Source: an uncultured Burkholderiales bacterium (lineage in GTDB: Bacteria > Pseudomonadota > Gammaproteobacteria > Burkholderiales > JAEUOS01). Taken from it: a stretch of DNA of 64,000 nt. Below the pieces are notes generated by a model. That model was not told the origin of the DNA and did not search any database. It was given only the letters and a program-made list of their open reading frames with translations. The DNA is taken from the NCBI GenBank assembly GCA_964470865.1, contig CAYYFR010000005.1:10858-74857 (forward strand), written 5' to 3'. Each line of letters opens with the position of its first letter. The stretch's first letter is position 1. This document shows, one piece after another, positions 11,457 to 26,100 of the stretch. A program made the translations under genes and the position numbers.

Positions 11457-12416
11457 ATGACCGACACTCTGCTGCTCGCCACCAAGCTGCCGCACTCTTT
11501 TCATGCCGCGCTGACCGAACGCTACCAAGTGCTGGGCCCGCTCACCGCACCTTTTCTGGACGCCGCCAAAAACCTGCCGACCGCCGATGCCAGCCGCGTG
11601 CGCGCACTGGTCACCATCGGCTCGGTCGGGGTTGCCGCCGAGGCTCTTGAACTTTTTCCGCAGCTCGGTCTGATCAGTTGCCTGGGCAGCGGCTACGAGG
11701 GCGTGCCCATCGCCGCGGCGCGCGAGCGCGGTATCACGGTAACCAACAGCCCCGGCGCCAACGCTTCCGCAGTGGCCGACCTGGCGCTGGGCCTCTTGAT
11801 ATCGGCCGTGCGTGATTTCGACGGCGCGCGCGCCTACCTGCGTGCCGGCAAGTTCGAAGGCAACGCCGGCGTGCGCCTGCCTGCGGTGCGCGGTCTCACC
11901 GGCCGCAAGTTGGGCATCTATGGCCTGGGCGCCATCGGCCTGAAGATCGCCCGCCGCGCGGCGGCCTGCGAGATGGAGGTCGCCTATCACAGCCGCAAGC
12001 CGCGTGAGGATGTCGCCTACCCCTGGCACCCGACGCTGGCCGCGCTGGCCGAATGGGCGGACGTGCTGATGGTGGCGGTGCGGGCGGACGCCAGCAATCG
12101 CCATGCGGTCAACCGGCAGGTCCTTGCCGCACTAGGTCCCGACGGCATTCTGGTCAACATTTCACGCGGGTCGGTGGTCGATGAGGCGGCGCTCGTCAGC
12201 GCCTTGCAGGAAGGCCTCATACGAGGCGCCGGGCTGGACGTCTACGAACGCGAGCCGCAGGTCACGCCGGCCTTGTTTGACCTGGCGCACGTGGCATTGA
12301 CACCGCACATTGGCGGCAACACGCACGAGGCGCAGAGCGCGATGCATGCGATCGTGCTGGCCAATCTGGCGGCGTTTTTCGCCGGGCAACCGCTACCCAC
12401 GCCGGTGCCGCTTTAG
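11457..12416 (+). CDS. D-isomer-specific 2-hydroxyacid dehydrogenase (glyoxylate/hydroxypyruvate reductase-like)
   Basis: 319 aa. NAD fold GIYGLGAIGLKIARRA. Catalytic-region motifs NISRGSVVDE and ALTPHIGGNT. Confidence 0.85.
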   Translation: MTDTLLLATKLPHSFHAALTERYQVLGPLTAPFLDAAKNLPTADASRVRALVTIGSVGVAAEALELFPQLGLISCLGSGYEGVPIAAARERGITVTNSPGANASAVADLALGLLISAVRDFDGARAYLRAGKFEGNAGVRLPAVRGLTGRKLGIYGLGAIGLKIARRAAACEMEVAYHSRKPREDVAYPWHPTLAALAEWADVLMVAVRADASNRHAVNRQVLAALGPDGILVNISRGSVVDEAALVSALQEGLIRGAGLDVYEREPQVTPALFDLAHVALTPHIGGNTHEAQSAMHAIVLANLAAFFAGQPLPTPVPL

Positions 12417-12444
12417 TCACGCCCCAACCCGCTACCAGGCCCAC

Positions 12445-12843
12445 ATGACTCTGTGCATCAGCAGCTACCACGCCCACATCTACTACGACCTTGCGAGTTC
12501 GCGCGGCGCGGCCCAGCGTTTGCGCGAGGGCATCGCCGAACGCTTCTCGGTGCGCCTCGGACGCTGGCACGATGTTCCGGTTGGCCCGCACCCGGGCCCC
12601 ATGTTTCAGGTGGCATTCCTGCCAGCGCTGTTCCCGGCTTTCGTGCCGTGGCTGATGCTCAACCGCGCCGGCCTCACCGTGCTGGTGCACCCGAATACCG
12701 GCGCGCCGCGCGATGACCACCTGGTGCATGCGCTATGGCTGGGAAGCGTGTTGCCGCTCAACGGTGATGTCCTCAGGATGGAAGAGGACGTGGCGGCGAT
12801 GGAAACCGAGCCCAATACCCACCCTGCGCTTCGCGCCAACTGA
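12445..12843 (+). CDS. DOPA 4,5-dioxygenase-family protein
   Basis: ORF 12310-12843, trimmed to ATG 12445. N-terminal SYHAHIYYD and HDVPVGPHPGPMFQV resemble the family as I recall it. Confidence 0.65.
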   Translation: MTLCISSYHAHIYYDLASSRGAAQRLREGIAERFSVRLGRWHDVPVGPHPGPMFQVAFLPALFPAFVPWLMLNRAGLTVLVHPNTGAPRDDHLVHALWLGSVLPLNGDVLRMEEDVAAMETEPNTHPALRAN

Positions 12844-12893: not shown

Positions 12894-13736
12894 CTAAGCC
12901 GCGATCGCGTCAGCCAGGCCGCCCCTTGCCGGCAGCACCGAAGCAATCGCCGCGCCGGCCTGGCTGCTCCACACCTCGGCGCCGTCAACCAGCACCTTGA
13001 GTTCGTTGCGCGAAAAGCGCGTCCACGTCTCGCCATGGGTGAGCGGCTCGGTAGCCACCAGAACCATATGGTCTTGCGTGCGATTGGCCTCGCTCAGATT
13101 GATACTGAGATCGTGATCCACCAGCTTGACACGGGGAAACGGATGCCGGCGCGCCATCCAGGTGAGATCGGTGGCGCAGTGGGCGAACAGGGCTTCGCCG
13201 TTGCCCATGAGAAAGTTGAACACGCCATGCGCGGCTACCCGAGGTGTCAATTCGGCCAACGCGTAGGCGATCTGCTGCCAACCGGGGCGCCCGGATGCAC
13301 CAAACCGTGCGCGCAGTTCCTGCAGCAGCCAGCAGAACGCGCGCTCGCTGTCGGTGCTGCCGACCGGTTCGAAATCACCATTGAGGCGCGGCTGGAAATC
13401 ACCTAGATCGCCGTTGTGGCAAAAGGTCCAGTGCCGCCCTTTCCATTCGCGCACAAACGGATGGCAATTCGACAAATGCACCTGTCCCTGGGTGGCTTTG
13501 CGAATGTGCGCCAGAACGATGCGCGAGCGGATCGGGTTGTTGCGCAAAAACTCCGCCAGAGGCGAGTCACTGGCACGCCGCTCGTCGATGAACACCCGAC
13601 AGCCGCTTGCATCATGAAAGGCGATACCCCAGCCGTCGACGTGTTCCCCGGTCCGACCACCGCGCGCCGAGAAGCCGGTAAACGAAAACGTCACCGCGGT
13701 AGGTGCGCTGCTGGAAAGGGCGAACAACTGGCACAT
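12894..13736 (-). CDS. Class II (Ntn) glutamine amidotransferase, YafJ-like
   Basis: ORF 12894-13760, trimmed to MCQLFALS (13736) so that Cys2 is the N-terminal nucleophile. Also GWGIAFHD and SNCHPF motifs. Confidence 0.85.
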   Translation of the reverse strand: MCQLFALSSSAPTAVTFSFTGFSARGGRTGEHVDGWGIAFHDASGCRVFIDERRASDSPLAEFLRNNPIRSRIVLAHIRKATQGQVHLSNCHPFVREWKGRHWTFCHNGDLGDFQPRLNGDFEPVGSTDSERAFCWLLQELRARFGASGRPGWQQIAYALAELTPRVAAHGVFNFLMGNGEALFAHCATDLTWMARRHPFPRVKLVDHDLSINLSEANRTQDHMVLVATEPLTHGETWTRFSRNELKVLVDGAEVWSSQAGAAIASVLPARGGLADAIAA

Positions 13737-13861
13737 GCTGCCACTTTGCCTCAACCCCACACCTGACAGTGCCCCGAAAAGACCCTGAATCGTGCCTCAC
13801 CGTGCCGTTACAGCAGACTGCCCCAACCCGGCGAAAAGGCGCGCGCGGCCCTGGCGTGCCG

Positions 13862-15415
13862 TCAAAGCGCGCCGGTCGCACCCTTGCCGCCGAAGCGCTG
13901 CCTGAGATCCGCCTTGAGCACCTTGCCCAGCGCACTCTTGGGCAGAGCGTCCACAAAGGCGAAGCGTCGCGGAATCTTGTAGCCGCCGATAGCGCCGCGG
14001 CAGTGTGCAATCAGCCCGGGAGCATCGAGTGTCACACCAGGTTTGGGAATGACCACCGCGAACACCGCCTCGCCATAGGTTTCGTCCGGCACGCCGATCA
14101 CCGCCGCCTCGGCAACACCGGGATGCGTGAACAGGGCCGCTTCAACCTCCGACGAATAGACGTTTTCGCCGCCAGTCACGATCATGTCCTTCTTGCGGTC
14201 GAGCAGGTACAGAAACCCTTCCCCGTCTTCACGGCCGATGTCACCGGTATGGAACCAGCCGTCGCGAAAGGTCTCGCGGTTGGCCTCCGGCAAACCGTAA
14301 TACCCCGGCGTGACATTCGGGCCGCGCACGATCACCTCACCCGAGGCGCCGCTCGGTACCTCGCGGCCGGCGTCGTCGACGATGCGCAGATCGACGCCCG
14401 GCAGCGTCTTCCCGGCGCATGCCAGGCGTGCCGTATTGCCGCTGGCGAGCGCCTCCAGATGGTGGCGATGTTCGAAGAACGAGAGGATCGGCGCGGTCTC
14501 GGTCAGACCGTAGCCTTGCGTGACGCTGGTCGCGGGCAAGGCTTCCAGGGCACGCCGGATCCAGGTCTCGGCCATGGGTGAACTGCCATACACCTGGATA
14601 CGCAACGAAGACAGGTCGAACTTCGCGAAATCCGCATGCTGCAGCACCATGATCAGCATGGTCGGGGCCAGCATGGTGAAGCTGACCCGATGCCGCTCGA
14701 TCGCCGCCAGGAACGCCGTCGGGTTGAACTCCGGCAGATAGACGTGGGCGCCGCCGGTCAGGGTGAGGGCAGACCCGAGCAAGTCCGCCGAATGGAACAT
14801 CGGGGCGACGTGCAGGTAGATGTCGTCGTGCCGGATACCCAATGTGAGGCCGACCTGCAATCCGTTGCATGCGATGTTGCGGTGGGTGAGGCGAACCCCT
14901 TTGGCACGCCCGGTGGTACCCCCGGTGTAGAGCAGGATCGCGTCGTCATTTTCGTCGGCATCGCGTGGCGGAAGTGCAGCGGCGGAATCGATCAGATCAT
15001 CATGCGAGCGCCGACCGGCGCCGTTTGCACCGAGCACGAAAGCATGCTCTCGCCAGGGTGCGAGCTCATCGCGGTCCAGCAGCGCCAACAACAGTGGATC
15101 GATGGCGAGCAGCGCACAGTCTGCGTCCTTGAGCACAAACGCAATCTCGCGCGGCGCCAATCGAACGTTCACCGGCACCGGAATCACACCCGACCAGTAG
15201 CCCGCATGCAGCAATTCGGCCTGGCGAAACGAGTTGCGCGAAACAATGCCGATGCGCGCCCCCGGTGCCAGGCCCATTTTGAGCAGTGCACCGGCAAGGC
15301 ATGCCACCCGGTGGACGTGCTCCGCCCACGAATGGATGCGCTCGGGTTCAATGATTGCCGGCCGGCTGGCGTGTTGACGACGCGCGCGTTGCAGCGCCGA
15401 AGACATCGAGAGCAT
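13862..15415 (-). CDS. Adenylate-forming acyl/aryl-CoA ligase (ANL superfamily), paralogue 2
   Basis: ORF 13862-15760, trimmed to ATG 15415 (MLSMSSAL), 13 nt after the upstream stop. Motifs LLYTGGTTGRAKGV, GYGLTETA, WFHTGDIG, DRKKDMIVTGGENVYS, PKSALGKVLK. Confidence 0.9.
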   Translation of the reverse strand: MLSMSSALQRARRQHASRPAIIEPERIHSWAEHVHRVACLAGALLKMGLAPGARIGIVSRNSFRQAELLHAGYWSGVIPVPVNVRLAPREIAFVLKDADCALLAIDPLLLALLDRDELAPWREHAFVLGANGAGRRSHDDLIDSAAALPPRDADENDDAILLYTGGTTGRAKGVRLTHRNIACNGLQVGLTLGIRHDDIYLHVAPMFHSADLLGSALTLTGGAHVYLPEFNPTAFLAAIERHRVSFTMLAPTMLIMVLQHADFAKFDLSSLRIQVYGSSPMAETWIRRALEALPATSVTQGYGLTETAPILSFFEHRHHLEALASGNTARLACAGKTLPGVDLRIVDDAGREVPSGASGEVIVRGPNVTPGYYGLPEANRETFRDGWFHTGDIGREDGEGFLYLLDRKKDMIVTGGENVYSSEVEAALFTHPGVAEAAVIGVPDETYGEAVFAVVIPKPGVTLDAPGLIAHCRGAIGGYKIPRRFAFVDALPKSALGKVLKADLRQRFGGKGATGAL

Positions 15416-15428
15416 GGACTCTCCCCGC

Positions 15429-15779
15429 TCAGGTGGAGCCTGAGGCCTTTGCCGCCTTGGCGCGATCGATGTACTTCTTGGTCGCATAAGCAACGCCGCT
15501 TTCGGCATAGCCCTTGCAAGCGCGATCCTTGAACTCGAGCGCGCGCTCCCATTCATCCACCGGGTAATACTCGCGTTCGGCCACGCAGCGAATTTCTCGT
15601 ACAACGCGCTCTTCGATGCCGAGCTTTTCGGCAATCTGGCGATCGGAAAAACCCGGCTGGCGCTTCTCCGGCGGCAGGTGCTCGGGATAGTTGATCTGGA
15701 TCGCCTGCGACATCGACAACACCTGTTCCTTGTACTGCCGGTACAGCTCGGGATCGACAAAATAGAAACCCATTCGCAT
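15429..15779 (-). CDS. Small hypothetical protein with a helix-turn-helix-like segment
   Basis: 114-116 aa. GGGAG is placed best for the second ATG (15773). The segment FSDRQIAEKLGIEERVVREIR resembles a sigma-r4/LuxR-type HTH. No family recognised. Confidence 0.6.
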   Translation of the reverse strand: MRMGFYFVDPELYRQYKEQVLSMSQAIQINYPEHLPPEKRQPGFSDRQIAEKLGIEERVVREIRCVAEREYYPVDEWERALEFKDRACKGYAESGVAYATKKYIDRAKAAKASGST

Positions 15780-15898: not shown

Positions 15899-16765
15899 TC
15901 AAAGCAAATTGCGCTGCGTGGAGCCGACCGGGCACACCCTCATGCATTCGAAGCACTGACCCTGGCTCACATTCGAGTACGACATCGACCACAAAGTGCG
16001 GGTGAACTGCGAGGAATAGAGGATCATCTTGCGCTTCTCCTTTTCCGGCTCGTCGAACACCGCTTCCAGCGCCTTCTGAAAGCCCGGGATGAACGAGGTT
16101 TGCACGCGGGTGGTGCAGCGCGCAACATCATAGCGACGCTCCTTGACGCGGCCGCCCTCGAGCTTGCCGCCAAGACACCCACCATCGTCGATCGGGCAGG
16201 TCGCCATGCACGGCGTGGTGCCCAACTCATCCCACATCGAGACACACTCGGGTGCGGGACAGGCCGGTGTCGAAAGCGGCGCGTCCACCGGCAAGGGCAA
16301 GGTGGTCAGCACGGCGGTGTAATACATGAAGCCGAATTGCGGATGCAATACCGGCCCGGCCAGGCTCGGCGAACCGCAGCCCGCAAGTTCGGCGGCAAGC
16401 GCGATGTTCAAGAACGGCCGGCGCGCCCGGTCCACGCCCGGCGGGATGGTGACCGCGTAATAGCCGAAGCGCCGTTCGATGTGCTGCGCGATGCGGTTAC
16501 CCATCGCGGTGACGCGGTCGGAGGTCGAGGTCGTTTCCATGTGGCGATAGCTCGGGCTGGCCCAGTCGCCGGCGCGCGGCTGGGCGCCGCCAAGCACGAA
16601 TACGGTTTTGCAACCCGGCAGCAGTTCGCCCGGGCGCTGTCCCTCCATGGCTGCGGTGAACGCGTTGGCGTCCGCCACACCCGACACCAGTGCCCCGGCC
16701 TTCTTCGCCAGTTCGCCCAGCTCGCGCTTGTGGGCTTCCATCAGGTCCAGATCCGCTGCGCTCAT
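15899..16765 (-). CDS. RdhA/QueG-superfamily Fe-S protein, short paralogue B
   Basis: 288 aa. The ATG overlaps the upstream TGA (ATGA). Collinear with paralogue A and with the core of the 19225-20487 protein. Cys pattern CPAPEC-x11-C-x3-C-x6-C ... C ... CFECMRVCPVG. Confidence 0.8.
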   Translation of the reverse strand: MSAADLDLMEAHKRELGELAKKAGALVSGVADANAFTAAMEGQRPGELLPGCKTVFVLGGAQPRAGDWASPSYRHMETTSTSDRVTAMGNRIAQHIERRFGYYAVTIPPGVDRARRPFLNIALAAELAGCGSPSLAGPVLHPQFGFMYYTAVLTTLPLPVDAPLSTPACPAPECVSMWDELGTTPCMATCPIDDGGCLGGKLEGGRVKERRYDVARCTTRVQTSFIPGFQKALEAVFDEPEKEKRKMILYSSQFTRTLWSMSYSNVSQGQCFECMRVCPVGSTQRNLL

Positions 16766-17673
16766 TTGAGCTTCCTTTCAGCCCGGCCGATCGGGCATAC
16801 GCGCATGCATTCGAAGCACTGCGCCACACTTTCCTTGTAGAAGGCGATGGCCGACGCCGAACGGGTAAAGAAGTCGGAGTGGATCATCATGCGGCGGCGC
16901 TCGTCATCATCTTCGTTGGCGATCTGCTCCAAGGCCTTCTGGAAACTGTTGATGCCGAAATTCATCGCACGCGAAACGCAGCGCTCGCGATCGTAGTAGG
17001 TCGATTCAATCCGGTTGTCCGGGCCGATCGTCCCGTGCAGGCAGCCGCCGTCGTCCGACGGGCAGGCCGCCTGGCAGGGTGTCCTGCCGCCGGCCTTGTA
17101 GACCTGCACGCACATCGGCGCCGGGCACACGTCCTGCTCCAGCATCGGATCGACCGGCAACGTAAGCGTGGTCAGGCAAGCGGAGTAATACAGCAGGCCG
17201 TACTGCGGATTGAGGATGATGTTGGCGGCGAACGAACGCGTGCCCAGACCTGCAAGCACCGCCGCCAGCATCATCGAGAACGCCGGCTGATGCCCGCCCA
17301 CCGGCAGGCCCGGCGCCTGGATCGCCTGGTAACCGTATTCCTGCTCGATGTGGTCGGCCACCAGATGAATCACGCGATCGTTGGCGAAGTCGTAGCCGTT
17401 CATCTCGATCAGCCGGTGGTCCGGTGACTGCCATGCACCGGCCGAAGGGCCGCGCACGCCGACCACCACCACCGACTTCGCGCCCGGCAGGATGTCGTAG
17501 GGCCGCGAGCCTGGCGGCACGAATTCGTCCCAGCGCTCGACCGGTGCGATGCCCACCACATCCACACCGGATGTCAGTGCGAGCTTGCGGAGTTCGTCGG
17601 CACGCGCCATCGCGATGGCCGTTTCCGCGTCGGGGGCCAGCGCCGCACGTACCAGCTCAGCCAGATTGGACAT
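16762..17673 (-). CDS. RdhA/QueG-superfamily Fe-S protein, short paralogue A
   Basis: ORF 16762-17823, trimmed to ATG 17673 (MSNLAEL, GGGAGA upstream); 17-nt overlap with the ligase stop. GVDVVGIAP, AKSVVVVGV, AGLGTRSFAANII. Cys pattern CPAPMC-x11-C-x3-C-x6-C ... C-x53-CFECMRVCPIG. Confidence 0.8.
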   Translation of the reverse strand: MSNLAELVRAALAPDAETAIAMARADELRKLALTSGVDVVGIAPVERWDEFVPPGSRPYDILPGAKSVVVVGVRGPSAGAWQSPDHRLIEMNGYDFANDRVIHLVADHIEQEYGYQAIQAPGLPVGGHQPAFSMMLAAVLAGLGTRSFAANIILNPQYGLLYYSACLTTLTLPVDPMLEQDVCPAPMCVQVYKAGGRTPCQAACPSDDGGCLHGTIGPDNRIESTYYDRERCVSRAMNFGINSFQKALEQIANEDDDERRRMMIHSDFFTRSASAIAFYKESVAQCFECMRVCPIGRAERKLK

Positions 17674-19228
17674 GGTGTTTCTCCCGCAGACTGGACCGTC
17701 GGAGCTCACCCTTGAGCACCTTGCCCAGCGCGCTCTTGGGTAATTGATCAACAAACTCGAAGCGACGCGGCACCTTGAACCCTCCGAGGTATGCCCGGCA
17801 GTATGCGGCAATCTCTTCGGCACTGGGCCGCATTCCCGGCTTTGCCACGATCACCGCCGTGACCATTTCCCCCAGGCGCTCATCCGCAACGCCTACGATC
17901 GCCGCCTCGGCGATGGCGGGATGACGATGCAGCACGGCCTCCACTTCGGAAGAATAGACATTCTCGCCACCGGTGATCACCATGTCCTTGAGGCGATCCA
18001 GCAGGTAAACATACCCTGCGGCGTCGATACGTGCCACATCGCCAGTGTGCAGCCAGCCGTCGCGCAGGGCTGCGCGCGTTTCCTCGGGACGGTGGTGATA
18101 GCCCTTCATGATGTTCGGGCCGCGCGCGATCAATTCACCCGCTGCGCCCGGCGCAACCTCGCTCCCATCCGGCGCCACCACCCGCAACTCATTGTGCGCA
18201 TTGGGCTTGCCGACCGAAAGCAGCGGCCCGTCGCGCTCACCGGTGACTGCCATGTGTTCGATGGCGGAGCGAAACTCGCGCGAATTGAAAATCGTGAGAT
18301 CGGGCGCGGTCTCGGTCATGCCGTAGCAATTGAACAGCTCAACAGCGGGAAACGCACCCGCGACCCGTTCGATCCATTCAAGCGGCAGCGGCGCTGCGCC
18401 ATAGATCAGAACCCGCAACGACGAAACATCGGCCGCCGCGAACTCAGCGCAGGAAACAGTGCCGATCAGCATGGTCGGCACCGTTACCACCGCGCCGACC
18501 CGATGGTATGCGATGGCCTGAAGGAAGGCCTGGGGTGAGAACATCGGCAAGAAACACTGCGCGGCCCCCTGCAGGAACCAGCCCATTGCCAGCAGGTCGG
18601 CCGAATGGAACATCGGTGCTGCATGCAGGTACACATGTTCGGGTCGCGCACCCACTGCAAGGCCAAACGCCAGGTTGTTGGACAGAATATTGGTGTGCGA
18701 CAAGCGCACACCCTTGCTGCGGCCGGTGGTACCCCCGGTGTAGAGCAACAGTGCGTCCGCATCCGCATCGGGATCGCTCGCGGCAATCGGCGCTGTCTCG
18801 GCAAGCATCGCTTCGTAGGCGGCCGCGTTGGCGCCGGCACTTTCGCCAAAGATGGTGATGCGGGCGCGCCAGGCGGCAAGAGCAGGATGTTCAAACATCG
18901 GCGCAAACACGCTTTCCACCATGACGCAGGTGCATTGCGCATCTTCGAGAATCTGCAGAAGCTCCGGCGCGGCCAGGCGAAAATTGAGCGGTACCGGAAT
19001 CGCACCGAGCCAGAAACCGGCCCACTTGAGTTCTTCGAAGCGAAAGCCGTTGCGCGCAAGAATGCCGAAGCGTTCATCGGGCAATGCGCCCAGGCGCCTG
19101 AGCATGCCGGCAGCACGTGACACCCGCACCCCGAATTCGGACCATGTGTAGGTTCGTGCAGTGTCCTGCATGGCCGGCCGCGGGCCGTGGTGCCGTACCG
19201 TCGAGGCGAGCGCCCTGACCAGATTCAT
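17657..19228 (-). CDS. Adenylate-forming acyl/aryl-CoA ligase (ANL superfamily), paralogue 1
   Basis: ORF 17657-19471, trimmed to ATG 19228 (MNLVRAL), which forms an ATGA overlap with the upstream stop. Motifs LLYTGGTTGRSKGV, CYGMTETA, WLHTGDVA, DRLKDMVITGGENVYS, PKSALGKVLK. Confidence 0.9.
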   Translation of the reverse strand: MNLVRALASTVRHHGPRPAMQDTARTYTWSEFGVRVSRAAGMLRRLGALPDERFGILARNGFRFEELKWAGFWLGAIPVPLNFRLAAPELLQILEDAQCTCVMVESVFAPMFEHPALAAWRARITIFGESAGANAAAYEAMLAETAPIAASDPDADADALLLYTGGTTGRSKGVRLSHTNILSNNLAFGLAVGARPEHVYLHAAPMFHSADLLAMGWFLQGAAQCFLPMFSPQAFLQAIAYHRVGAVVTVPTMLIGTVSCAEFAAADVSSLRVLIYGAAPLPLEWIERVAGAFPAVELFNCYGMTETAPDLTIFNSREFRSAIEHMAVTGERDGPLLSVGKPNAHNELRVVAPDGSEVAPGAAGELIARGPNIMKGYHHRPEETRAALRDGWLHTGDVARIDAAGYVYLLDRLKDMVITGGENVYSSEVEAVLHRHPAIAEAAIVGVADERLGEMVTAVIVAKPGMRPSAEEIAAYCRAYLGGFKVPRRFEFVDQLPKSALGKVLKGELRRSSLREKHHVQSG

Positions 19229-20487
19229 TTGGAGCGAAACTGCTGCCAGAACCGGGCGGGCTTCATGCGCTCGCCGAACTTGAGCTTGACATCGAGCCAC
19301 AGCGCCAGCTTCTTGAAAGGTGAAGCCGCCAGCCGTTGCCAGGCACGGTAATACCAGCGCGACCACCAGCGCGAGATGTCCTTGTTGTAGGGGCAAACAC
19401 GCATGCAGATACCGCATTCGGTCGCCTGGTTGACCCAGAACTTGAAGCATTTTTCCGCATCGATCTGCCACTTGCGAATGCCGATGATCGAGGACTGGTT
19501 GGGAATCACCTCGGTGGGCGGGCCCTGCGGAATCGCTTTCGGCGGGCAGGCATCGGCGCAGCGGCGGCAGGTTGTATCGCAGAACTCGCGCACGCCGAAC
19601 CTGATCGGCTCATCATGGTCAAGCGGCATGTCGGTATGGATCCGGCCGATTCGCACGCGCGGACCGAAGTCCTTGGTGATCAGAAGCCCGTTGCGGCCAT
19701 ACTCTCCCAGCCCGGCCTGGATCGCATAGGGAATCGCCAGCGATGAGTCGTTGACACTGGCAATCGCGCGATAACCCAGGTTGAGAATGTAGGTGGCGAT
19801 GCTTTGCACCAGTTCGCAGTCGCGCGAGTAGCCATGGCCCACGGCGATGCCGGCGGTAGCCGAGGGATAGCACTTGACGGCGTCGTAGTGCATCGCTGTG
19901 ACGATCACGATCACGTTGGGCAAACCTTCCGGAATCGAGTAGGGTTTCTCGGCCAGGGCCTTGGTTGCAAAACTGTGCGTGTAATGCCAGCGCGGATCGG
20001 AATGGGTGATGCCAACCCCGTCAGCCCCGAACAGGCGACTGACACGCTTGATCTCTTCGGCCATGGCAGCCGGCGACTCGACCGCTACCTGTTCCGCGCT
20101 GGGCTCCGAATAAGGCTGGATATAGTCGAGAAAACCATCGACCCGACCCTGGTGCAGGCTGCGCTGGATGGTCAGGTTGGCGCCCATCCAGCCGGCATTG
20201 CGCAAGGCGAAGTCGCGTACCGAATAGCCATCCGCGTTGCGCGCGCCCAGGCCGGGCTTGAACATGCCCTTGAACCAGTTGAGCACCTTCTCCGAGCGGA
20301 TCCGCGAATCCCACTGGCCGCGCGTGTAGATGTCGTTGGACTGGTTGAAGCGTTCGAAGGTATCGAGCACCTCGAAGCCGCAGGCTTCGTCCTTGGCATG
20401 CCGGAGCGCGGCCTTCAGGCGATAGGGCCCCTCGTTCCGCGGTTGCCGCTCCTGCGTCAACCGCCCCATTTCCTCAAGCGCACCCAT
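19225..20487 (-). CDS. Reductive dehalogenase (RdhA)-family protein, cytoplasmic type (no Tat signal)
   Basis: ORF 19225-20613. The predicted promoter (20557-20585) would start transcription near 20550, inside the longer ORF, so the start is set to ATG 20487 (MGALEEMGRL, GAAGG upstream). C-terminal Fe-S motifs CDTTCRRCADACPPKAI and C-x12-CGICMRVCPYN, preceded by an AGLGEYGRNGLLIT core typical of RdhA/QueG. Confidence 0.8.
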   Translation of the reverse strand: MGALEEMGRLTQERQPRNEGPYRLKAALRHAKDEACGFEVLDTFERFNQSNDIYTRGQWDSRIRSEKVLNWFKGMFKPGLGARNADGYSVRDFALRNAGWMGANLTIQRSLHQGRVDGFLDYIQPYSEPSAEQVAVESPAAMAEEIKRVSRLFGADGVGITHSDPRWHYTHSFATKALAEKPYSIPEGLPNVIVIVTAMHYDAVKCYPSATAGIAVGHGYSRDCELVQSIATYILNLGYRAIASVNDSSLAIPYAIQAGLGEYGRNGLLITKDFGPRVRIGRIHTDMPLDHDEPIRFGVREFCDTTCRRCADACPPKAIPQGPPTEVIPNQSSIIGIRKWQIDAEKCFKFWVNQATECGICMRVCPYNKDISRWWSRWYYRAWQRLAASPFKKLALWLDVKLKFGERMKPARFWQQFRSK

Positions 20488-20539
20488 GGCGAACCCTTCA
20501 CGAATTGCCTGTCGCGGGAACTTCTGTCCGCCTCGGCCC

Positions 20540-20556
20540 GGTACCTGACAAGTACC
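20540..20556. promoter_or_regulatory. 17-bp near-perfect palindrome abutting the -10 of the rdhA-like promoter (candidate TetR operator)
   Basis: GGTACCTGACAAGTACC: 7 of 8 arm positions pair around a central A. It covers the predicted transcription start of the minus-strand operon. Confidence 0.4.
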
Positions 20557-20585
20557 AGAATATAACGTTGGTTCAGTATCGTCAA
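20557..20585 (-). promoter_or_regulatory. Sigma70-type promoter of the rdhA-like operon
   Basis: Minus strand: TTGACG (20585-20580), 17 nt, TATTCT (20562-20557). Confidence 0.55.
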
Positions 20586-20635
20586 GCGCTGATTCCACTA
20601 CGGAAAGCGTCACTTTATGAGACTTGAACGACGGA

Positions 20636-20664
20636 TTGACACGGGAAATTCCGCAACCTATACT
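20636..20664 (+). promoter_or_regulatory. Sigma70-type promoter of the tetR/TRAP-SBP unit
   Basis: TTGACA (20636-20641), 17 nt, TATACT (20659-20664). It lies back-to-back with the rdhA-like promoter, with the two -35 boxes about 50 bp apart. Confidence 0.6.
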
Positions 20665-20676
20665 CGAAATAATTCT

Positions 20677-20686
20677 AACGATCGTT
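20677..20686. promoter_or_regulatory. Perfect 10-bp palindrome AACGATCGTT just downstream of the tetR promoter (candidate autoregulatory site)
   Basis: Read directly from the sequence. It sits about 6-15 nt after the predicted start site. 8-bp inverted arms TTGAACGA (20624-20631) and TCGTTCAA (20682-20689) bracket the promoter. Confidence 0.3.
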
Positions 20687-20693
20687 CAACGAC

Positions 20694-21404
20694 TTGAGAA
20701 CCTCACCGGCAACTTCGAAGTTGGCCAACAAGCCTACCGCCGGCCAGGCCCAGCGGCGCGACGAGTTCTTGCGCGCCGCAGCCGATGTGTTTGCCGAGCG
20801 TGGATATCACGGCGCCGGCATGCGCGAAATCGCCGATCGCTGCGGCGTACAACCGGCAGCGCTTTACTATTACTTTCCATCCAAGGCCAGCATTCTTGAG
20901 GCGATCTGCTATTACGGCATCACGCAGTTCGTCGAACGCCTCGCGGCGATACAGGCAGCGGCGCTTCCGGTCGAGGACAAGGTTCGTCAGGCCGTGCGTG
21001 CGCACCTCGAACCCCTGCTCGAAAACCGCTTCTATGTCCATGCCTTCCTGTTTCAGCGCCGCGAGTTGCCTGCGGCGGTGCGGCGACCGCTTGACACGCT
21101 GGCGCGCAACTATGAGGATTTGTGGCATGCGCTCCTGGTTGAAGGCCAGACCCGCGGCGTGATCGCCAGGGAAATTGACCGCAAGCTCACCGTACTGGCC
21201 ATTTTGGGCATGTGCAACGCCGTTGCCCGCTGGTCCGGCGTCGCCGCCGACCAGGGCCTGGACGCGGTTGCCACCACCTTCACCCGATTGATTTCATCCG
21301 GGCTGTTTGCCGATCGAGCCGAAACTACCAGGCCTGACCTGAGTCTGGTCAACACAAAACAGCGCCGCAAGCGTGCTGCCAACCGAGGAGAAAACTCATT
21401 ATGA
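20694..21404 (+). CDS. TetR/AcrR-family transcriptional regulator
   Basis: HTH region RRDEFLRAAADVFAERGYHGAGMREIADRCGVQPAALYYYFPSKASIL. The only in-frame starts ahead of the HTH are TTG 20694 or TTG 20721, so the start is uncertain. Confidence 0.85.
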   Translation: MRTSPATSKLANKPTAGQAQRRDEFLRAAADVFAERGYHGAGMREIADRCGVQPAALYYYFPSKASILEAICYYGITQFVERLAAIQAAALPVEDKVRQAVRAHLEPLLENRFYVHAFLFQRRELPAAVRRPLDTLARNYEDLWHALLVEGQTRGVIAREIDRKLTVLAILGMCNAVARWSGVAADQGLDAVATTFTRLISSGLFADRAETTRPDLSLVNTKQRRKRAANRGENSL

Positions 21405-22426
21405 AAAGTACTTTTCGCGCCTTGATCGCCGTCATTGGGGCGTCGATACTAGCCGCCGCACCTGCGGCATCCCAAACCATTCTGGATCTGAGCTCCTGGG
21501 TACCCGCCAGCCATCCTCTGGTTGCCGAGATGACTGTGCCGTACTGCAAGGAGATCGAGGCCGTTACGCAGGGGCGGGTGAGTTGCCGCATGCTGGCCAA
21601 ACCGGTTGCCAACCCGCCCGGCACCTTCGACGCGATTCGTGACGGCGTGGCCGATATCTCGTTCATGGTGCATGGCTACACGCCGGGGCGTTTTCCGCTG
21701 GCCGAAGCGGTCGAACTTCCGTTCATGGCCGATTCGGCCGAGGTGATGTCGGTCGCCTATCAGCGGATCTACGAGCGCCTGCTTTCCAGATACGACGAGC
21801 ACAAGGGCGTACTCACGCTCGGCGTGTTTACCCATGGTCCTGGCCAGGTTTACAACTCGCGCCGACCGGTTGTCGCGATCAAGGATTTCGAAGGTCTCAA
21901 GTTGCGGATTGCCAGCGGGGTCGTCAGCGACGTGACCCGAGCCGTGGGTGCCACGGCGGTACTCAAGCCAGCCTCCGAAAGCTATGAACTGATTTCCTCG
22001 GGTATCGTCGACGGCACCATGCTGCCCAAGGAAAGCCCGGTAGGGCTCAATCTGATGCGTGTGATCAAGCATGTTACCTATGTCCCGGGCGGGCTGTACA
22101 ACGTCAGTTTCGCGCTGATCGCCAACCCGGCGAAATGGTTGCAGATTTCGCAGGCGGACCGCGACGCGATAGCCCGAATTTCAGGCGAAGCGCTCGCACG
22201 CCGCTTCGGTCGGGCATGGGATGCCGCCGATGGCCGCGGTCAGAAGGCCGTGGCGGAAAACAACATACAGGTGGTGAACGCCAGCCCGCAGCTGGTGACT
22301 GACCTCAAGGCACGCACCGCCGGCCTTGAACAGGCATGGGTGGAAAAGGTCAAGAGCAGAGGCGCGGATGGAAAGGCCATTTTGGACGCACTACGTAGCG
22401 AGATCACGGTTCTGCAGAGAAAATAG
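21401..22426 (+). CDS. TRAP-transporter solute-binding protein (DctP family); no DctQ/DctM genes adjacent
   Basis: 341 aa. Signal peptide MKSTFRALIAVIGASILAAAPAASQ. DctP-like body (GTFDAIRDGVADISF, AEAVELPFM). The ATG overlaps the tetR TGA (ATGA). Confidence 0.8.
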   Translation: MKSTFRALIAVIGASILAAAPAASQTILDLSSWVPASHPLVAEMTVPYCKEIEAVTQGRVSCRMLAKPVANPPGTFDAIRDGVADISFMVHGYTPGRFPLAEAVELPFMADSAEVMSVAYQRIYERLLSRYDEHKGVLTLGVFTHGPGQVYNSRRPVVAIKDFEGLKLRIASGVVSDVTRAVGATAVLKPASESYELISSGIVDGTMLPKESPVGLNLMRVIKHVTYVPGGLYNVSFALIANPAKWLQISQADRDAIARISGEALARRFGRAWDAADGRGQKAVAENNIQVVNASPQLVTDLKARTAGLEQAWVEKVKSRGADGKAILDALRSEITVLQRK

Positions 22427-22656
22427 CCGATAGCCTGAACGCGGCCGAAGGCAAGACCAGGATCGCACGCCCCCCCACCATTGCAGCGGACCTTTGCCTG
22501 CAGGCACCTGCAAAATCAAGGGAGCGGGCAAGCCTGATATGCGGCCCCGTGAAGTGCGCCGCGACCGCGAATCGGCTAAAATTTGGTGCTTGGTCGCCTC
22601 ATAGCCTAAACATCCATCCGACTCATTCGTTTAGTCCGCCCATAAGCAATGGCGGC

Positions 22657-22684
22657 TTGACTCCATCGCCGCGCCGGTTATTCT
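22657..22684 (+). promoter_or_regulatory. Sigma70-type promoter candidate for fdxA
   Basis: TTGACT, 16 nt, TATTCT, ending 35 nt upstream of the fdxA ATG. Confidence 0.4.
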
Positions 22685-22718
22685 CAAGGCGTCGGCCCGT
22701 ACCAAGGACACCCGTTTC

Positions 22719-23045
22719 ATGACCCACATCGTCACCGAACCCTGCATCAAGTGCAAATATACCGATTGCGTCGACGTCTGCCCGGTGGATTGCTTCCGCG
22801 AAGGGCCGAACATGCTGGTGATCGACCCCGACGAATGTATCGATTGCGCGGTGTGCATTCCCGAATGCCCGGTCAACGCGATCTATGCCGAGGAAGACGT
22901 GCCGGACGGCCAGAAGCACTTCTACGATCTCAATGTCGAACTGGCCAAGGCCTGGAAGTCGATCACCAAGACCAAGGGCCCGCTGGCGGATGCCGAGGAC
23001 TGGAAAGACAAGGCCGACAAGCTGCCGCTCCTGGACCGGGGTTAA
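22719..23045 (+). CDS. fdxA: 7Fe ferredoxin (Azotobacter FdxA type)
   Basis: 108 aa. [18 protein letters not shown] and [16 protein letters not shown] are the classic [3Fe-4S][4Fe-4S] pattern. Confidence 0.95.
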
Positions 23046-23068
23046 GACCCGCGCGCAGCCCCCGAATG

Positions 23069-23095
23069 GGCCGCCCGCGCGGCCTTTTTGTTTTT
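23069..23095 (+). terminator. Rho-independent terminator after fdxA
   Basis: Stem GGCCGC/GCGGCC with a 4-nt loop, then TTTTTGTTTTT. Ends 15 nt before the next start codon. Confidence 0.65.
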
Positions 23096-23109
23096 ACGGA
23101 CATTCCCTG

Positions 23110-26100
23110 ATGCTCAATCTGGCCTTTGACCTGCAATTTCCTGATCTTTACAACCTGCCCGGGCTTTCCCGGGTCGACGCGGCCTTTCTCGCGCACCTGG
23201 CGGAGTCCGACATGGGCTTGCGGGCCAGGCTAGGTGAAGCGCGCAAGAATCCCGCGGCCCAAGATGCCAGGGCCGAGTCGGAGTTGTTGCTGGACTTGAG
23301 CCCGCACATGGACGATTTTCTGGGCCAGCTCTTCGGCATTTCGGCCGAAGTAAGCGCCCTGGCCGAACGCCACCATGAACTGGCGCCGCTGTTCGAAGTC
23401 AAGCGCCAGTTCGTGCAGCGCAAGGCCGCCAAGACCCATGATGCGGTGGCGGCCGCAAGCTTTGACGGCGCCGCCCTTGGTGCCGAACTGGGCAGCCTGT
23501 TAGGCGCTGCCGCAAGCGATGTCGCTGCCTTCGAACTGGCGTTCGCGCGCCAGGTGAAGCGCTGGCAAGCCGACGAAACCGGCTTTGCCGGTAGCCTCGA
23601 CCTGGCACTCAAATATGCTGCCTGGGCCCTTTTGACTGAAGCTGGCGCGCACCACCACGCCCCCGGCGTGCTGTTCAAGGCGCCGCGCAAGATCGACCCG
23701 CTGACCGTGATCGATCACGCCATCGAGCGCCGCCAAGTCGACGGCACCACCACCTTCACCATCAAGCCTGCGCATATTCGCCGCCGCCAGGGCTTCAAGC
23801 TGACCGACGCCGGCACCGATCTGACAGGCGCCCTGGACCAGGCCAATTACTGTATCTGGTGCCACAAGCAGGGCAAGGATTCGTGCTCCACCGGGCTCAA
23901 GGAAAAGCCGGCGGCCGACGGCGGCGTAGCTTTCAAGCGCACCGTTTTCGGTGTGCGCCAGGCCGGCTGCCCACTGGAAGAAAAGATCAGCGAGTTCCAT
24001 ATGGCCAAGGTGGCCGGCAACGCCATTGGCGCCCTGGCCATCATCGCGGTGGACAACCCGCTGGCCGCCGCCACCGGGCACCGCATCTGCAACGATTGCA
24101 TGAAATCATGCATCTACCAGAAGCAGGAACCGGTCAACATACCGCAAGCCGAGACCCGCACCCTGAAGGACGTGCTGGAACTGCCCTGGGGCTTCGAGAT
24201 CTATTCGCTCCTGACGCGCTGGAACCCGCTCAATCTCAGGCGCCCATTGCCGGCTGTCCCGAGCGGCTACAAGGTACTGGTGGCGGGCATGGGCCCGGCC
24301 GGATTCGGCCTGTCGCACAACCTTCTGAATGACGGCCACACCGTGGTCGGCATCGACGGCCTGAAAATCGAACCGCTTGCGCAATCGCTTTCCGGCGTGC
24401 GCCTGGATGGTTCGCGCACCGCGTTCGAGCCGATTCGCGATTTCGCCGAGATCAAGGAAGAACTCGACGAACGCACCATGGCCGGATTCGGCGGTGTTGC
24501 CGAATACGGCATCACGGTGCGCTGGGACAAGAGCTTTCTCAAGGTGATACGCCTGCTGCTCGAGCGTCGAGCGGAGTTCGCGCTGTTTGGCGGCGTACGC
24601 TTTGGCGGCACCGTCACCCTCGATGATGCGTGGGCGCTGGGATTCGACCATGTCGCGCTGGCCATCGGTGCCGGCCGCCCGACAGTCCTCGACATTCCCA
24701 ACGGCTTTGCGCGCGGCGTGCGCACCGCCTCCGATTTTCTGATGGCGCTGCAACTGACCGGCGCAGCCAAGGCCGATTCCATCGCCAACATGCAGTTGCG
24801 CCTGCCGGTGGTGGTGATCGGCGGCGGCTTGACCGCGATCGACACCGCCACCGAGTCACTGGCCTACTACCAGGTACAAGTGGAAAAGTTTCTCGCGCGC
24901 CACGAGATCCTGGTCAAGGAACAGGGCATCAGCGCGGTGCGCGCCGCCTGGCGCGACGAAGAACGCGAAGTCGCGGAGGAGTTTCTGGCACATGCGCGCG
25001 CGATTCGCGCCGAGCGTGAGACCGCCGCGCGCCAGGGCCGCGAGCCGCGCGTAATCGAGTTGCTCAGGAACTGGGGCGGCGTGACCATTGCCTACCGCAG
25101 GCGCTTAGTCGACAGCCCGTCCTACACCCTCAATCACGAGGAAGTGGAGCTTGCCCTGCAGGAAGGCATCAGCTTCGCCGAAGGCCTGACGCCCAAGCGC
25201 GCCGACATCGACAACTACGGTGCGGTCAAGGGCATGGCGTTCGCCCGCAGTCGCATCAAGGCCGATGGCAAGTTCGAAGGCGATGGCGACACCTGGCTGC
25301 CGGCACACACCGTGTTCGTGGCCGCCGGCACCCAGCCGAACACGGTGCTGGCGCGCGAGGGCGACGCTGCCGCACGCGCGCAATTCAAGGTCGACGGCAA
25401 GTATTTCGCCGCCTGTGATGAAGACGGCCAAGCGCTCAAGCCTGAAAGCTCGATCTCGAAGCCGCGCAAGGCCGACGTGCTGCTAGCGAAAACCGCCGAC
25501 GGCCGTTTTGTCTCTTATTTCGGCGATGTCCATCCTTCGTATTTCGGCAACGTCGTCAAGGCACTGGGTTCCGCCAAACAGGGTTTCCCGGTGGTCACGC
25601 GCGTGCTCGCGCAGCGAGCGCCGTCGCTCTGCGCAGCGGCCAGTGCGGGCGCGGCGCATGGCGTCACTCACCCCAATCCATTCATCGCCCACCTGAACTC
25701 CGACTGGCGTGCCACGGTTCATGAGGTTGTCCGACTCACACCCACCATCATCGAAGTGGTGATCAAGGCGCCGGCTGCGGCGCGCAAGTTCGAGCCCGGC
25801 CAGTTTTACCGGCTGCAAAACTTCGAATCACTGGCGCCTTTTGTCAAGGACACGCGCCTGCAAATGGAAGGCCTGGCAATGACCGGCGCCTGGGTCGACC
25901 GCGAGGCCGGCCTGGTCTCGACCATCGCGCTTGAAATGGGCGGTTCGTCAAACCTGTGCGCCTCGCTCAAGCCCGGTGAAGCGGTGATCCTGATGGGCCC
26001 GACCGGCGCGCCCACCCACATCGTGCCCGACCAGACCGTAGCCCTGGTTGGCGGCGGCCTCGGCAATGCCGTGCTGTTCTCGATCGGCCAGGCGTTCCGC

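Follow-up and report, generated by a model that had tools for sequence, protein, structure and literature searches.

To our knowledge, the reductive dehalogenases (RdhA) and the epoxyqueuosine reductase QueG are the only class III cobalamin/Fe-S proteins with characterised, structurally solved members. The fold of this class is derived from flavin nitroreductases (PMC4646009). QueG is a cytoplasmic, soluble protein whose eight cysteines follow the topology C188-x2-C191-x2-C194-x3-C198-xn-C214-xm-C240-x2-C243-x3-C247 (PMC5175355). It has a catalytic D-Y-H motif (PMC4646009) and a C-terminal helical (HEAT-like) tRNA-binding domain (residues 257-385, PMC5175355). Among the dehalogenases, PceA forms a homodimer and NpRdhA a pseudo-dimer in which the second cofactor domain is vestigial (PMC12219181). 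The human B12-processing protein MMACHC/CblC also has a cobalamin-binding nitroreductase-like fold, but it lacks a ferredoxin domain and carries out another reaction (decyanation/dealkylation). Finally, the AlvinFdx ferredoxins (Allochromatium vinosum Fdx and P. aeruginosa Fdx1) tolerate an insertion of 6-8 residues, which shifts their potentials to very low values (PMC2984482).

Here we analyse two adjacent genes, A and B, in a 64,000-nucleotide stretch of DNA from an uncultured Burkholderiales bacterium (the window; Table 1). Their products are 41% identical over the full length (BLASTP E 1e-74), and the stop codon of A overlaps the start codon of B in an ATGA that couples their translation, as a sequence-only reading of the window had suggested. 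A is the better-conserved subunit, with orthologues that are 59-97% identical (median 69%).

Table 1. Positions of genes A, B and C, of the cysteine codons and of the neighbouring genes in the window
Feature	Position	Strand	Details and evidence
Gene A	16762..17673	-	303 aa, ATG at 17673; ORF
Gene B	15899..16765	-	288 aa; ORF
ATGA, A stop/B start overlap	16762..16765	-	Read directly in the sequence
A motif 1, codons C183-x4-C188-x11-C200-x3-C204-x6-C211	17041..17127	-	Counted from the ATG at 17673
A C232, equivalent of QueG Cys214 (fifth ligand, proximal cluster)	16978..16980	-	Superfamily-invariant
A C286-x2-C289-x3-C293-P294 (CFECMRVCP), end of motif 2	16792..16818	-	Alignments; weak Fer4_7 match
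B codons C169-x4-C174-x11-C186-x3-C190-x6-C197 (CPAPEC...TPCMATCPIDDGGC)	16175..16261	-	Alignments
B fifth ligand C217	16115..16117	-	
B C271-x2-C274-x3-C278-P279 (CFECMRVCP)	15929..15955	-	Alignments
Gene C	15429..15773	-	114 aa, all-helical, without the Cys array; third member of the triad
Downstream acyl-CoA ligase, FadD/PRK06187-like	13862..15412	-	NCBIfam NF004837, 457 bits
Upstream acyl-CoA ligase, paralogue of the downstream one	17657..19177	-	Start codon uncertain
RdhA-like gene	19225..20487	-	TIGR02486 174.5 bits (>160 cut-off); Fer4_16 E 8e-9

Fold and family placement of A and B

No family-level match to A or B was found among the curated Pfam and NCBIfam models or the PDB sequences. 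The NCBIfam RDH model (TIGR02486, cut-off 160) gives 17.8 bits for A (E 2e-3) and 26 bits for B (E 7.6e-6), and the QueG model (TIGR00276, cut-off 200) gives 19.1 bits for B (E 5e-4) and no match for A. Searched alone against PDB sequences, A has no match even at E 10; only its family profile (A1) reached PceA (E 6.8e-5) and QueG (E 2.6e-4), in alignments that span the common AG(L/I)G...PE(F/Y)G core. The window's own RdhA-like protein aligns with A in hhalign at a probability of 88.6%, and intermediate relatives score up to E 1.5e-27 with the QueG model and E 4.5e-32 with the RDH model.

The AF2 model of A has a pLDDT of 74.9 overall and a mediocre Fe-S domain (pLDDT 49-88). Its best Foldseek match is QueG (5t8y/5d0b, E 1e-8), followed by PceA, NpRdhA and MMACHC (E 2e-4 for the last); QueG, PceA, NpRdhA and the RDH complex are matched at E 1e-8 to 1e-5. 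The best 50 of the 55 matches at E <= 0.001 are all cobalamin proteins. Foldseek, profiles and intermediate sequences all give the class III layout, in which a two-[4Fe-4S] ferredoxin domain comes after a nitroreductase-like cofactor domain, and the product of gene A is modelled as a QueG/RdhA-fold N-terminal domain with an expanded two-cluster ferredoxin domain. On these models and profiles, A and B are a separate, uncharacterised clade in the RdhA/QueG class III fold superfamily. They share fold and redox-chain architecture with RdhA (PceA 4UQU, catabolic NpRdhA 4RAS and the RdhA-like protein of the window), but they are shorter (about 300 aa versus 420-700 aa), have neither a TAT signal nor an RdhB, and low-confidence alignments give no evident counterpart of the catalytic Tyr/Arg(Lys) pair.

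The Tyr, Asp and Arg residues of RdhA and QueG were sought in A and B with HMM and hhalign. Since the resulting loop alignments are of low confidence and disagree by 2-3 residues, we do not name a catalytic subunit. In the low-confidence hhalign loop alignment, F96 of A and S82 of B lie opposite the RdhA Tyr above the corrin; Y94 of A is near this position and is conserved in less than 97% of sequences, and the column of PceA Arg305 holds a Tyr in A. A has an invariant D95-F96-x-N98-D99 segment; in B, D83 and D112 are invariant, and a low-confidence alignment puts D112 near the QueG Asp134 column. Each subunit has its own set of invariant polar residues, different from that of the other, in the loops that build the QueG/RdhA active site.

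The fold and one common core motif, AGxG...PxxG, suggest that A and B bind cobalamin. The fold could also have been retained without cobalamin, as an Fe-S-only or other-cofactor module for electron transfer or redox chemistry. The very low RDH and QueG scores (26 and 19 bits versus 160 and 200) would fit such a loss, as would a catalytic Tyr that is not clearly kept (hhalign, low confidence) and a sister-clade pair whose second protein has lost two proximal-cluster cysteines; the nitroreductase ancestry of the fold (PMC4646009) points the same way, and NpRdhA is a precedent for vestigial, cofactor-free copies of the domain (PMC12219181). However, the N-terminal domains of A and B match the Fe-S domains in conservation and retain the AGxG...PxxG core, and both the uniformly cobalamin-binding best 50 of 55 Foldseek matches and the invariant polar residues of the active-site loops argue against a cobalamin-free module, which we regard as unlikely.

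The nine-cysteine array

A and B have the common spacing C-x4-C-x11-C-x3-C-x6-C-x20-C-x53-C-x2-C-x3-CP, which places the nine cysteines at positions 183, 188, 200, 204, 211, 232, 286, 289 and 293 of A. The sequence-only reading had noted the identical spacing of the first five of these, and its quoted peptides are present as given, CPAPMCVQVYKAGGRTPCQAACPSDDGGC in A and CPAPECVSMWDELGTTPCMATCPIDDGGC in B. The lone cysteine that follows is C232 in A and C217 in B, and CFECMRVCP(I/V)G lies 53 residues further on. The same reading had proposed an alignment with homologues; across 10 homologues of A type and 10 of B type, all nine cysteines are invariant. Of 239 full-length homologue representatives (90% clusters), 238 have the complete spaced pattern (A-type 119/120, B-type 119/119), a conservation that far exceeds chance. 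As the reading suggested, the nine cysteines are enough for two [4Fe-4S] clusters. On top of the nine, B has a subunit-specific invariant Cys130 in an AGCG motif. One apparent A-B fusion from the core clade (P0243, 600 aa) lacks most of the cysteines and was left out of the evidence.

No Pfam ferredoxin model reaches A or B; the strongest match, to Fer4_10 (E 0.07), covers the final motif alone, and neither protein matches Fer4_16 (gathering score 30 bits). Relatives with shorter spacers do match Fer4_16 (P0336 with 35 bits, P0308 with 40 bits). In a 30-sequence alignment of the superfamily, the invariant cysteines are C183, C188, C200, C232, C286, C289 and C293, with C204 conserved in 90% or more. 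The cysteine columns of A and B align with relatives that have C-x4-C-x2-C-x3-C, and then with relatives that have the canonical C-x2-C-x2-C-x3-C. Because the columns connect through these graded intermediates to the QueG topology, the array can be read as the family motif with insertions and one clade-specific cysteine. Eight of the nine cysteines are co-linear with the QueG ligands in a 4 + 1 + 3 arrangement and are, by this alignment, homologous to the ligands, also eight, that hold the two [4Fe-4S] clusters in the QueG/RdhA domain. The idea that an unrecognisable geometry replaces the first ferredoxin motif is therefore not upheld: the motif is canonical with insertions, and the array matches a described cluster-binding family in eight of its cysteines, with the ninth not covered.

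Compared with the x2, x2 and x25 spacings of QueG, A and B have x4, x11 and x53, in addition to the ninth cysteine. Motif 1 of A contains insertions of 2 and 9 residues and then the extra cysteine in CPSDDGGC; the x11 spacing is the 9-residue insertion, which separates ligands 2 and 3, and x53 reflects a helical insert in motif 2. The RdhA-like protein of the window has the near-canonical first motif that the sequence-only reading reported (CDTTCRRCADACP), and an insertion interrupts its motif 2 as well (C-x10-C-x2-C-x3-CP). The closest precedent for the C-x11-C loop is the AlvinFdx insertion, which separates two cysteine ligands of a single cluster in a motif of otherwise clostridial type. 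Only the principle of insertion is common to both: AlvinFdx proteins are small stand-alone ferredoxins of at most about 100 aa with a C-terminal helix, whereas A and B are two-domain proteins of 300 aa with a 9-residue insertion and two further residues between ligands 1 and 2.

The ligand map depends on the intermediate sequences, since pairwise hhalign of A with the RdhA-like protein places the first RdhA cysteine opposite C188 and leaves C183 unpaired. We prefer the multiple alignment through intermediates because C183 is invariant in the superfamily.

The column of the ninth cysteine (C211 in A, C197 in B) is the one that holds Ala in the canonical CPxxAI. In clostridial-type ferredoxins, this Ala occupies a packing position and not a ligand position. 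In both subunits, the cysteine is embedded in a conserved acidic Gly-Gly loop, D-(D/E)-G-G-C, and sister clades have an extra cysteine at +7, +3 or +4 from the CP cysteine, or Ala instead. From these alignments, C211 is most likely a second-sphere or spare residue beside the cluster and not a required ligand. It could nevertheless be a real ligand, given that P0250 lacks C204 yet keeps the extra cysteine and that the pattern is invariant in 238 of 239 sequences. The array might then build more than plain cubanes, either as a five-Cys-ligated or otherwise non-standard cluster or with an extra metal or inter-subunit site. Two sister sub-clades also have a cysteine in the C211 column, the P0250 case hints at ligand swapping, and the tenth invariant cysteine of B lies in a loop that borders the proximal cluster in QueG/RdhA (PMC4646009); but the eight canonical ligands are already fully conserved, the C211 column is that of the CPxxAI Ala, and the full-length relatives P0261, P0263, P0264, P0274 and P0280 have the x11 motif with Ala at this column and eight cysteines only. 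We consider such a non-standard site quite improbable. It is close to the idea of the sequence-only reading, and the extra metal or inter-subunit site would be built from the D-(D/E)-G-G-C loops, which are invariant in both A and B.

A conserved triad beside acyl-CoA ligases

The scan of the genome collection found 452 stretches that encode a relative, and homologue clusters in the protein library run into the hundreds. Representative hits number 1305 in all. Gene B is directly downstream of A in 78 of 80 loci, and a third gene, C, is directly downstream of B in 76 of 77. In about 97% of the 83 loci, which represent at least seven groups at phylum or class level, A, B and C are colinear, and carriers include Proteobacteria, Acidobacteriota, Planctomycetota, Myxococcota and Entotheonella/Tectimicrobiota. 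A sister clade likewise has a pair with a C homologue, and in distant relatives two modules are naturally fused into one protein (for example, P0308 and P0303). The A-to-B gene order, the full cysteine set in both proteins and the fused double-module relatives back the 1:1 heteromer that the ATGA overlap had suggested to the sequence-only reading. The two proteins are most likely subunits of a cytoplasmic heteromeric oxidoreductase that contains or works with protein C. By analogy, an A-B heterodimer would be intermediate between the PceA homodimer and the NpRdhA pseudo-dimer, with the difference that A and B both have full Fe-S sets.

Protein C is 105-115 aa long across the loci, with 52-92% identity between phyla, and has no Pfam or NCBIfam family match. 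Its AF2 model (pLDDT 78.8) consists of six helices. Foldseek against the PDB found nothing significant for it, the best match being at E 0.84, with weak pieces that resemble sigma-region-4 or DeoR helix-turn-helix (HTH) structures. JGI labels the protein 'aMBF1'; because the Foldseek pieces are weak, both this label and an HTH role are putative. Protein C may be a subunit or a helix-turn-helix-like partner.

An acyl-CoA ligase lies within 7 kb in 43 of 55 loci (78%; 34 FadD-type and 10 PaaK-type), and a PaaK-like ligase adjoins the fused distant relative P0308. Around one-fifth of the loci, mainly from Acidobacteriota, Planctomycetota and Myxococcota, have no ligase nearby. Orthologues of the downstream ligase of the window (42-50% identical) adjoin A-B-C in many loci, and by these comparisons the two are orthologues: the window's ligase and the one found with A-B-C in other genomes. 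The 3' end of the upstream ligase overlaps the start of A by 17 nt, and a ligase in this position is limited to Burkholderiales loci that also carry the RdhA-like gene. The variable neighbours are catabolic (Rieske oxygenases, P450, UbiD, enoyl-CoA hydratase and HpcH-type lyase). No dedicated electron donor is conserved beside the triad in the loci compared, and an Rfam scan of the window found neither a cobalamin riboswitch nor any other RNA family.

The RdhA-like gene is, by its profile score, a true member of the RDH family and stands outside the conserved triad. It shares a minus-strand gene string with A and B in the window and in close Burkholderiales relatives, so that A and B might be accessory proteins of this dehalogenase, such as an electron donor or a maturation factor. 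However, it accompanies only 9 of the 83 A-B-C loci, and in the window it comes with a TetR, a TRAP binding protein and a 1260-aa NAD(P)H Fe-S flavoprotein module of its own. We rejected a role for A and B in serving the adjacent RdhA on the co-occurrence, and regard it as very unlikely.

The resemblance to QueG is the closest among known structures (B. subtilis 5D08/5T8Y and S. thermophilus 5D6S), and extends to the domain order, the eight-Cys 4 + 1 + 3 topology, the AG(I/L)G...PEYG core and a cytoplasmic, soluble location. A and B differ in forming an obligate paralogous pair with protein C, linked to CoA ligases and not to tRNA modification. Both end 10 residues past the last CP and, as they stop just after the last Fe-S motif, they are without the tRNA-binding domain of about 130 residues. 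That they are genuine epoxyqueuosine reductases, the JGI name of many homologues, is therefore extremely unlikely despite QueG being the top structural match, given the missing C-terminal domain, the absence of the D-Y-H motif from both proteins in alignments, the TIGR00276 result (B far under the cut-off, A without a match) and the obligate pairing with C and CoA ligases.

Proposed reaction and place in the superfamily

On balance, we favour a cytoplasmic AB(C) reductase in which each subunit has two standard clusters; it is probably cobalamin-dependent and would act on a CoA thioester. Each subunit would hold two ordinary cubane [4Fe-4S] clusters on the eight QueG/RdhA-homologous cysteines. 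By homology to QueG, the distal, electron-entry cluster would be bound by C183, C188, C200 and C293, and the proximal cluster by C204, C232, C286 and C289. The odd spacing would come from two additional residues between ligands 1 and 2, from a 9-residue helix-forming loop between ligands 2 and 3 that ends in an invariant Thr-Pro, and from a helical subdomain of about 40 residues that precedes the last CxxCxxxCP. The N-terminal domain would hold a base-off corrinoid, and electrons would pass from the distal to the proximal cluster and on to the cobalt. Co(I) could then drive a two-electron reductive elimination of the dehalogenation, dehydroxylation or epoxide deoxygenation type. The ligase neighbourhood points to a CoA thioester as substrate, presumably an acyl- or aryl-CoA made by the neighbouring ligase.

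A more far-reaching possibility, which we hold as doubtful, is that A-B-C is a new heteromeric branch of cobalamin/Fe-S reductases that performs reductive elimination on CoA thioesters in bacteria from the sea, from sponges and from soil, most of them aerobic and largely uncultured. A candidate reaction for such a branch is the NADPH-dependent reductive ortho-dehalogenation of 2,4-dichlorobenzoyl-CoA. The biochemistry of this dehalogenation was described in coryneform bacteria in the 1990s, and we know of no gene to which it has been assigned. Our literature searches found no relevant heteromeric QueG/RdhA-like enzyme linked to CoA ligases, and a survey of cold-seep RdhA does not cover the A/B clade (PMC12219181). 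If the new-branch interpretation is true, the ninth cysteine, together with the tenth in B, would form a cluster environment unseen in RdhA and QueG.

The A/B pair is a third, well-conserved clade beside the reductive dehalogenases and QueG, covered neither by Pfam or NCBIfam models nor by a solved structure, and its recognition corrects a recurrent misannotation as 'QueG'. Its quaternary design is distinct, with two paralogous subunits and a small helical protein, and its genes are consistently linked to CoA ligases. The graded cysteine spacings indicate that a canonical CxxCxxCxxxCP motif can drift past the reach of profile models while the ligands are retained, which is helpful for the annotation of Fe-S proteins. 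If A and B bind B12, the chemistry and ecology of B12-dependent reduction would extend to aerobic marine and soil bacteria.

The gene string and its nine-cysteine array

Paralogues A and B (41% full-length identity, E 1e-74) lie in a tight minus-strand gene string that, on reading the sequence, spans about 13.8-20.5 kb of the window. The stop codon of the upstream ligase (17657-17659) and the start codon of A (17671-17673) are placed such that 17 nt of A are overlapped, and the A/B junction is an ATGA overlap; translation of all three genes, ligase included, is thus linked in this genome.

Features of the window around paralogues A and B
Feature	Position	Strand	Remarks
Two neighbouring TPR + glycosyltransferase-family-41 genes	1185-4912		O-GlcNAc-transferase-like; no relation to A/B
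Nitrite/sulfite reductase haemoprotein gene	6747-8477
Tetrapyrrole methylase gene	8701-9879		CobA/CysG-like
DOPA 4,5-dioxygenase-family gene	12310-12843	+	3' of operon
Class-II glutamine-amidotransferase-like gene	12894-13760	-	3' of operon; weak EgtC similarity, 52 bits
Second, downstream acyl-CoA ligase	13862-15412	-
ORF C	15429-15773	-	114 aa
Paralogue B	15899-16765	-	288 aa
Paralogue A	16762-17673	-	303 aa
Upstream acyl-CoA ligase	about 17657-19177	-	precedes A
RdhA-like gene	19225-20487	-	TIGR02486, 174 bits; no TAT-like N-terminus
TetR regulator	20694-21404		divergent; flanks RdhA-like gene
TRAP-type solute-binding protein	21401-22426		near RdhA-like gene
1260-aa NAD(P)H/FAD/Fe-S protein	22885-26667		glutamate-synthase-beta + ferredoxin-reductase-like; NF005128, 762 bits
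1179-aa adenylate/guanylate cyclase + AAA_16 protein	26799-30338		no relation to A/B

Both proteins carry the spacing C-x4-C-x11-C-x3-C-x6-C-x20-C-x53-C-x2-C-x3-CP (183, 188, 200, 204, 211, 232, 286, 289 and 293 in A), and the cysteine peptides quoted in the sequence-only reading, with identical A/B spacing, were confirmed as written. In word-indexed searches of 5.8 billion proteins, A had 722 matches and B had 546. For each query, the top 120 show 62-97% identity, lack a precomputed Pfam domain, and are named 'hypothetical' or, in JGI, 'epoxyqueuosine reductase QueG'. All nine cysteines are invariant in an alignment of 20 A and B sequences, and a regular expression detected the complete pattern in 238 of 239 full-length representatives: the array first noticed in this one genome is real and conserved across homologues. 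None of the Pfam ferredoxin models is reached by A or B, the last CxxCxxxCP alone giving a sub-threshold match.

The RdhA-like gene, TetR regulator, TRAP protein and 1260-aa reductase (19225-26667) co-occur in Burkholderiales loci L007-L012 (L008 ends before the reductase position), and this set resembles a dehalogenase module of the catabolic, aerobic type whose reductase is separate. The amidotransferase-like and DOPA 4,5-dioxygenase genes also adjoin the cluster in some Burkholderiales loci (L010-L012). The haemoprotein and methylase pair is probably siroheme-related; the methylase is the sole tetrapyrrole gene seen in the window, where no cobalamin riboswitch was found.

Fold and proposed cluster ligands

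The AF2 model of A (mean pLDDT 74.9; N-terminal domain high, Fe-S domain 49-88) matches QueG best (E 1e-8), then PceA, a membrane reductive dehalogenase (RDH) complex, NpRdhA and MMACHC; of 55 structural matches at E <= 0.001, the 50 listed are all cobalamin proteins. The family profile matches PceA (6.8e-5) and QueG (2.6e-4), over a core that includes AG(L/I)G...PE(F/Y)G, and hhalign against the window's RdhA gives probabilities of 88.6% (A) and 71.8% (B). Membership in the named QueG or RDH families fails on several counts: A and B score 18-26 bits, below the cut-offs of 160 and 200 for the RDH and QueG models, lack the C-terminal tRNA-binding domain and D-Y-H motif of QueG, and show no evident RdhA Tyr/Arg pair in hhalign alignments, where these loops are of low certainty. 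The JGI name 'QueG' is therefore a superfamily-level over-annotation. The JGI names of C homologues, 'ribosome-binding protein aMBF1' and 'NIF3 family GTP cyclohydrolase', are also unsupported by family tests.

Among 1.84 billion cluster representatives searched exhaustively with the profile, 1305 relatives were identified at E <= 1e-3 (441 at E <= 1e-10), and their cysteine positions form a graded series. In the core clade the ninth cysteine is at +7 from the CP cysteine; sister clades keep C-x4-C-x11-C-x3-C and have the extra cysteine at +3 or +4 or lack it (eight cysteines); remoter relatives have C-x4-C-x2-C-x3-C or C-x4-C-x3-C-x3-C, and other relatives the fully canonical C-x2-C-x2-C-x3-C. 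The short-spacer relatives match Pfam Fer4_16, the QueG/RdhA double-cluster domain, and reach E 1.5e-27 (QueG model) and 4.5e-32 (RDH model), never exceeding curated cut-offs. Across groups, a 30-sequence alignment shows C183, C188, C200, C232, C286, C289 and C293 to be invariant and C204 at least 90% conserved.

These eight columns correspond to the published ligand scheme of QueG (Cys188-x2-Cys191-x2-Cys194-x3-Cys198-xn-Cys214-xm-Cys240-x2-Cys243-x3-Cys247), in which the first three and the last cysteine bind the distal cluster and the other four the cobalamin-adjacent cluster (PMC5175355). By homology, C183, C188, C200 and C293 of A would be the distal ligands and C204, C232, C286 and C289 the proximal ones. 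The non-canonical array thus amounts to motif 1 carrying insertions of two and nine residues, and the geometry that had seemed unrecognisable resolves to the standard eight ligands of the family, insertions and one extra cysteine. The nine-residue insertion is predicted to be helical, with an invariant Thr-Pro at its end, and has a precedent in AlvinFdx ferredoxins, where 6-8 residues inserted between ligands of one cluster accompany very negative potentials (PMC2984482). A helical insert, about 40 residues long, interrupts motif 2 (spacer x53 in A/B, compared with x25 in QueG and, in the window's RdhA, x10). Pairwise hhalign of A with that RdhA pairs the first RdhA cysteine with C188, not C183; the intermediate sequences, on which the ligand map depends, were judged better evidence because C183 is invariant everywhere.

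The ninth cysteine (C211) occupies the column of the Ala in canonical CPxxAI, preceded by a three-residue, acidic, Gly-Gly-containing insertion (CP-x-D/E-x-G-G-C), and the simplest reading makes it a spare or second-sphere thiol next to a cluster. There are hints that it can serve as a ligand instead: P0250, a full-length relative with the x11 motif, lacks the CP cysteine (C204 column) and retains the extra one, a single sequence in which a sequencing or assembly error is possible. It may also form part of a new site. A tenth cysteine, C130 of B (16376-16378; AGCG), is at least 97% conserved in B-type subunits, and A-type subunits have Leu (AGLG) at this position of the AG(L)G core motif; the equivalent loop of QueG/RdhA borders the proximal cluster and the corrin. 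A and B also have different invariant residues in loops that form the active site of QueG/RdhA (R74, R87, D95, F96, N98 and D99 in A; R64, D67, D83, D112 and, again, C130 in B), in alignments too uncertain for naming a catalytic subunit, if either is one.

The conserved triad and its neighbours

With one genome scanned per species, 452 stretches with a relative were found. Of the 80 best loci, nearly all come from metagenome-assembled genomes; the lineages represented are Burkholderiales, Alpha- and Gammaproteobacteria (Woeseiaceae, Halieaceae, Rhodospirillaceae and several sponge-derived bins), Acidobacteriota, Planctomycetota, Myxococcota and Entotheonella; L007 (Burkholderiales) is 97% identical to the window, and a Tectimicrobiota genome also has the A-B-C triad. 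Among 83 non-redundant loci, B lies directly 3' of A in 78 of the 80 with room, C directly 3' of B in 76 of 77, and an AMP-forming ligase within 7 kb in 43 of 55 (34 FadD-type, orthologous to the downstream ligase of the window, and 10 PaaK-type). An RdhA-like gene is present at only 9 of the 83 loci, and unbiased clustering of neighbouring ORFs turned up no further gene that is widely shared. Neighbours that vary between loci are catabolic: Rieske oxygenases, P450, SDR, isochorismatase-like, UbiD, enoyl-CoA hydratase, carboxyltransferase and a methylmalonyl-CoA-mutase-like protein. Protein C, with 52-92% identity across phyla, is predicted to be all-helical and has no Pfam family or significant structural match.

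A C homologue (40% identity, E 8e-14) also accompanies the sister-clade pair L087, which adjoins an HpcH/HpaI-type lyase. In this clade the extra cysteine follows three residues after the CP cysteine, and the second L087 subunit (3476-4339) lacks equivalents of C232 and C286, two proximal-cluster cysteines, which may mark the degeneration of one subunit and recalls the vestigial domain in NpRdhA.

Among the distant relatives are single chains that join two complete QueG/RdhA-like modules, both with a set of eight cysteines (P0303, P0308, P0289, P0304, P0322, P0325 and P0345). P0308, which adjoins a PaaK-like ligase, and P0303 are fusions of about 670 aa, and a group of 750-830 aa joins a QueG-like N-terminal half to an RDH-like C-terminal half; all stay below the curated family cut-offs. 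Known RdhAs are dimeric or pseudo-dimeric (PMC12219181). Together with the fusions, the strict co-linearity and the stop/start overlap, this supports a predicted A/B heterodimer.

Proposed mechanism and significance

Beyond the established eight-cysteine homology to two-cluster ligands, superfamily fold, conserved triad and frequent ligase neighbour, a mechanism can be proposed. A and B would each hold two cubane [4Fe-4S] clusters, with a base-off corrinoid in the N-terminal domain. Electrons would enter at the distal cluster, whose potential the x11 loop may tune, and reach cobalt by way of the proximal cluster; Co(I) would then carry out reductive elimination, a two-electron step, on a CoA thioester that the neighbouring ligase provides. 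Aerobic coryneforms have an NADPH-dependent activity for the reductive ortho-dehalogenation of 2,4-dichlorobenzoyl-CoA to which, to our knowledge, no gene has been assigned.

The clade is missing from curated family libraries and from the PDB. It is a widespread, uncharacterised and apparently heteromeric variant of the cobalamin/Fe-S reductases, and the interest now lies in the clade itself, with its dedicated small partner and its link to CoA ligases.
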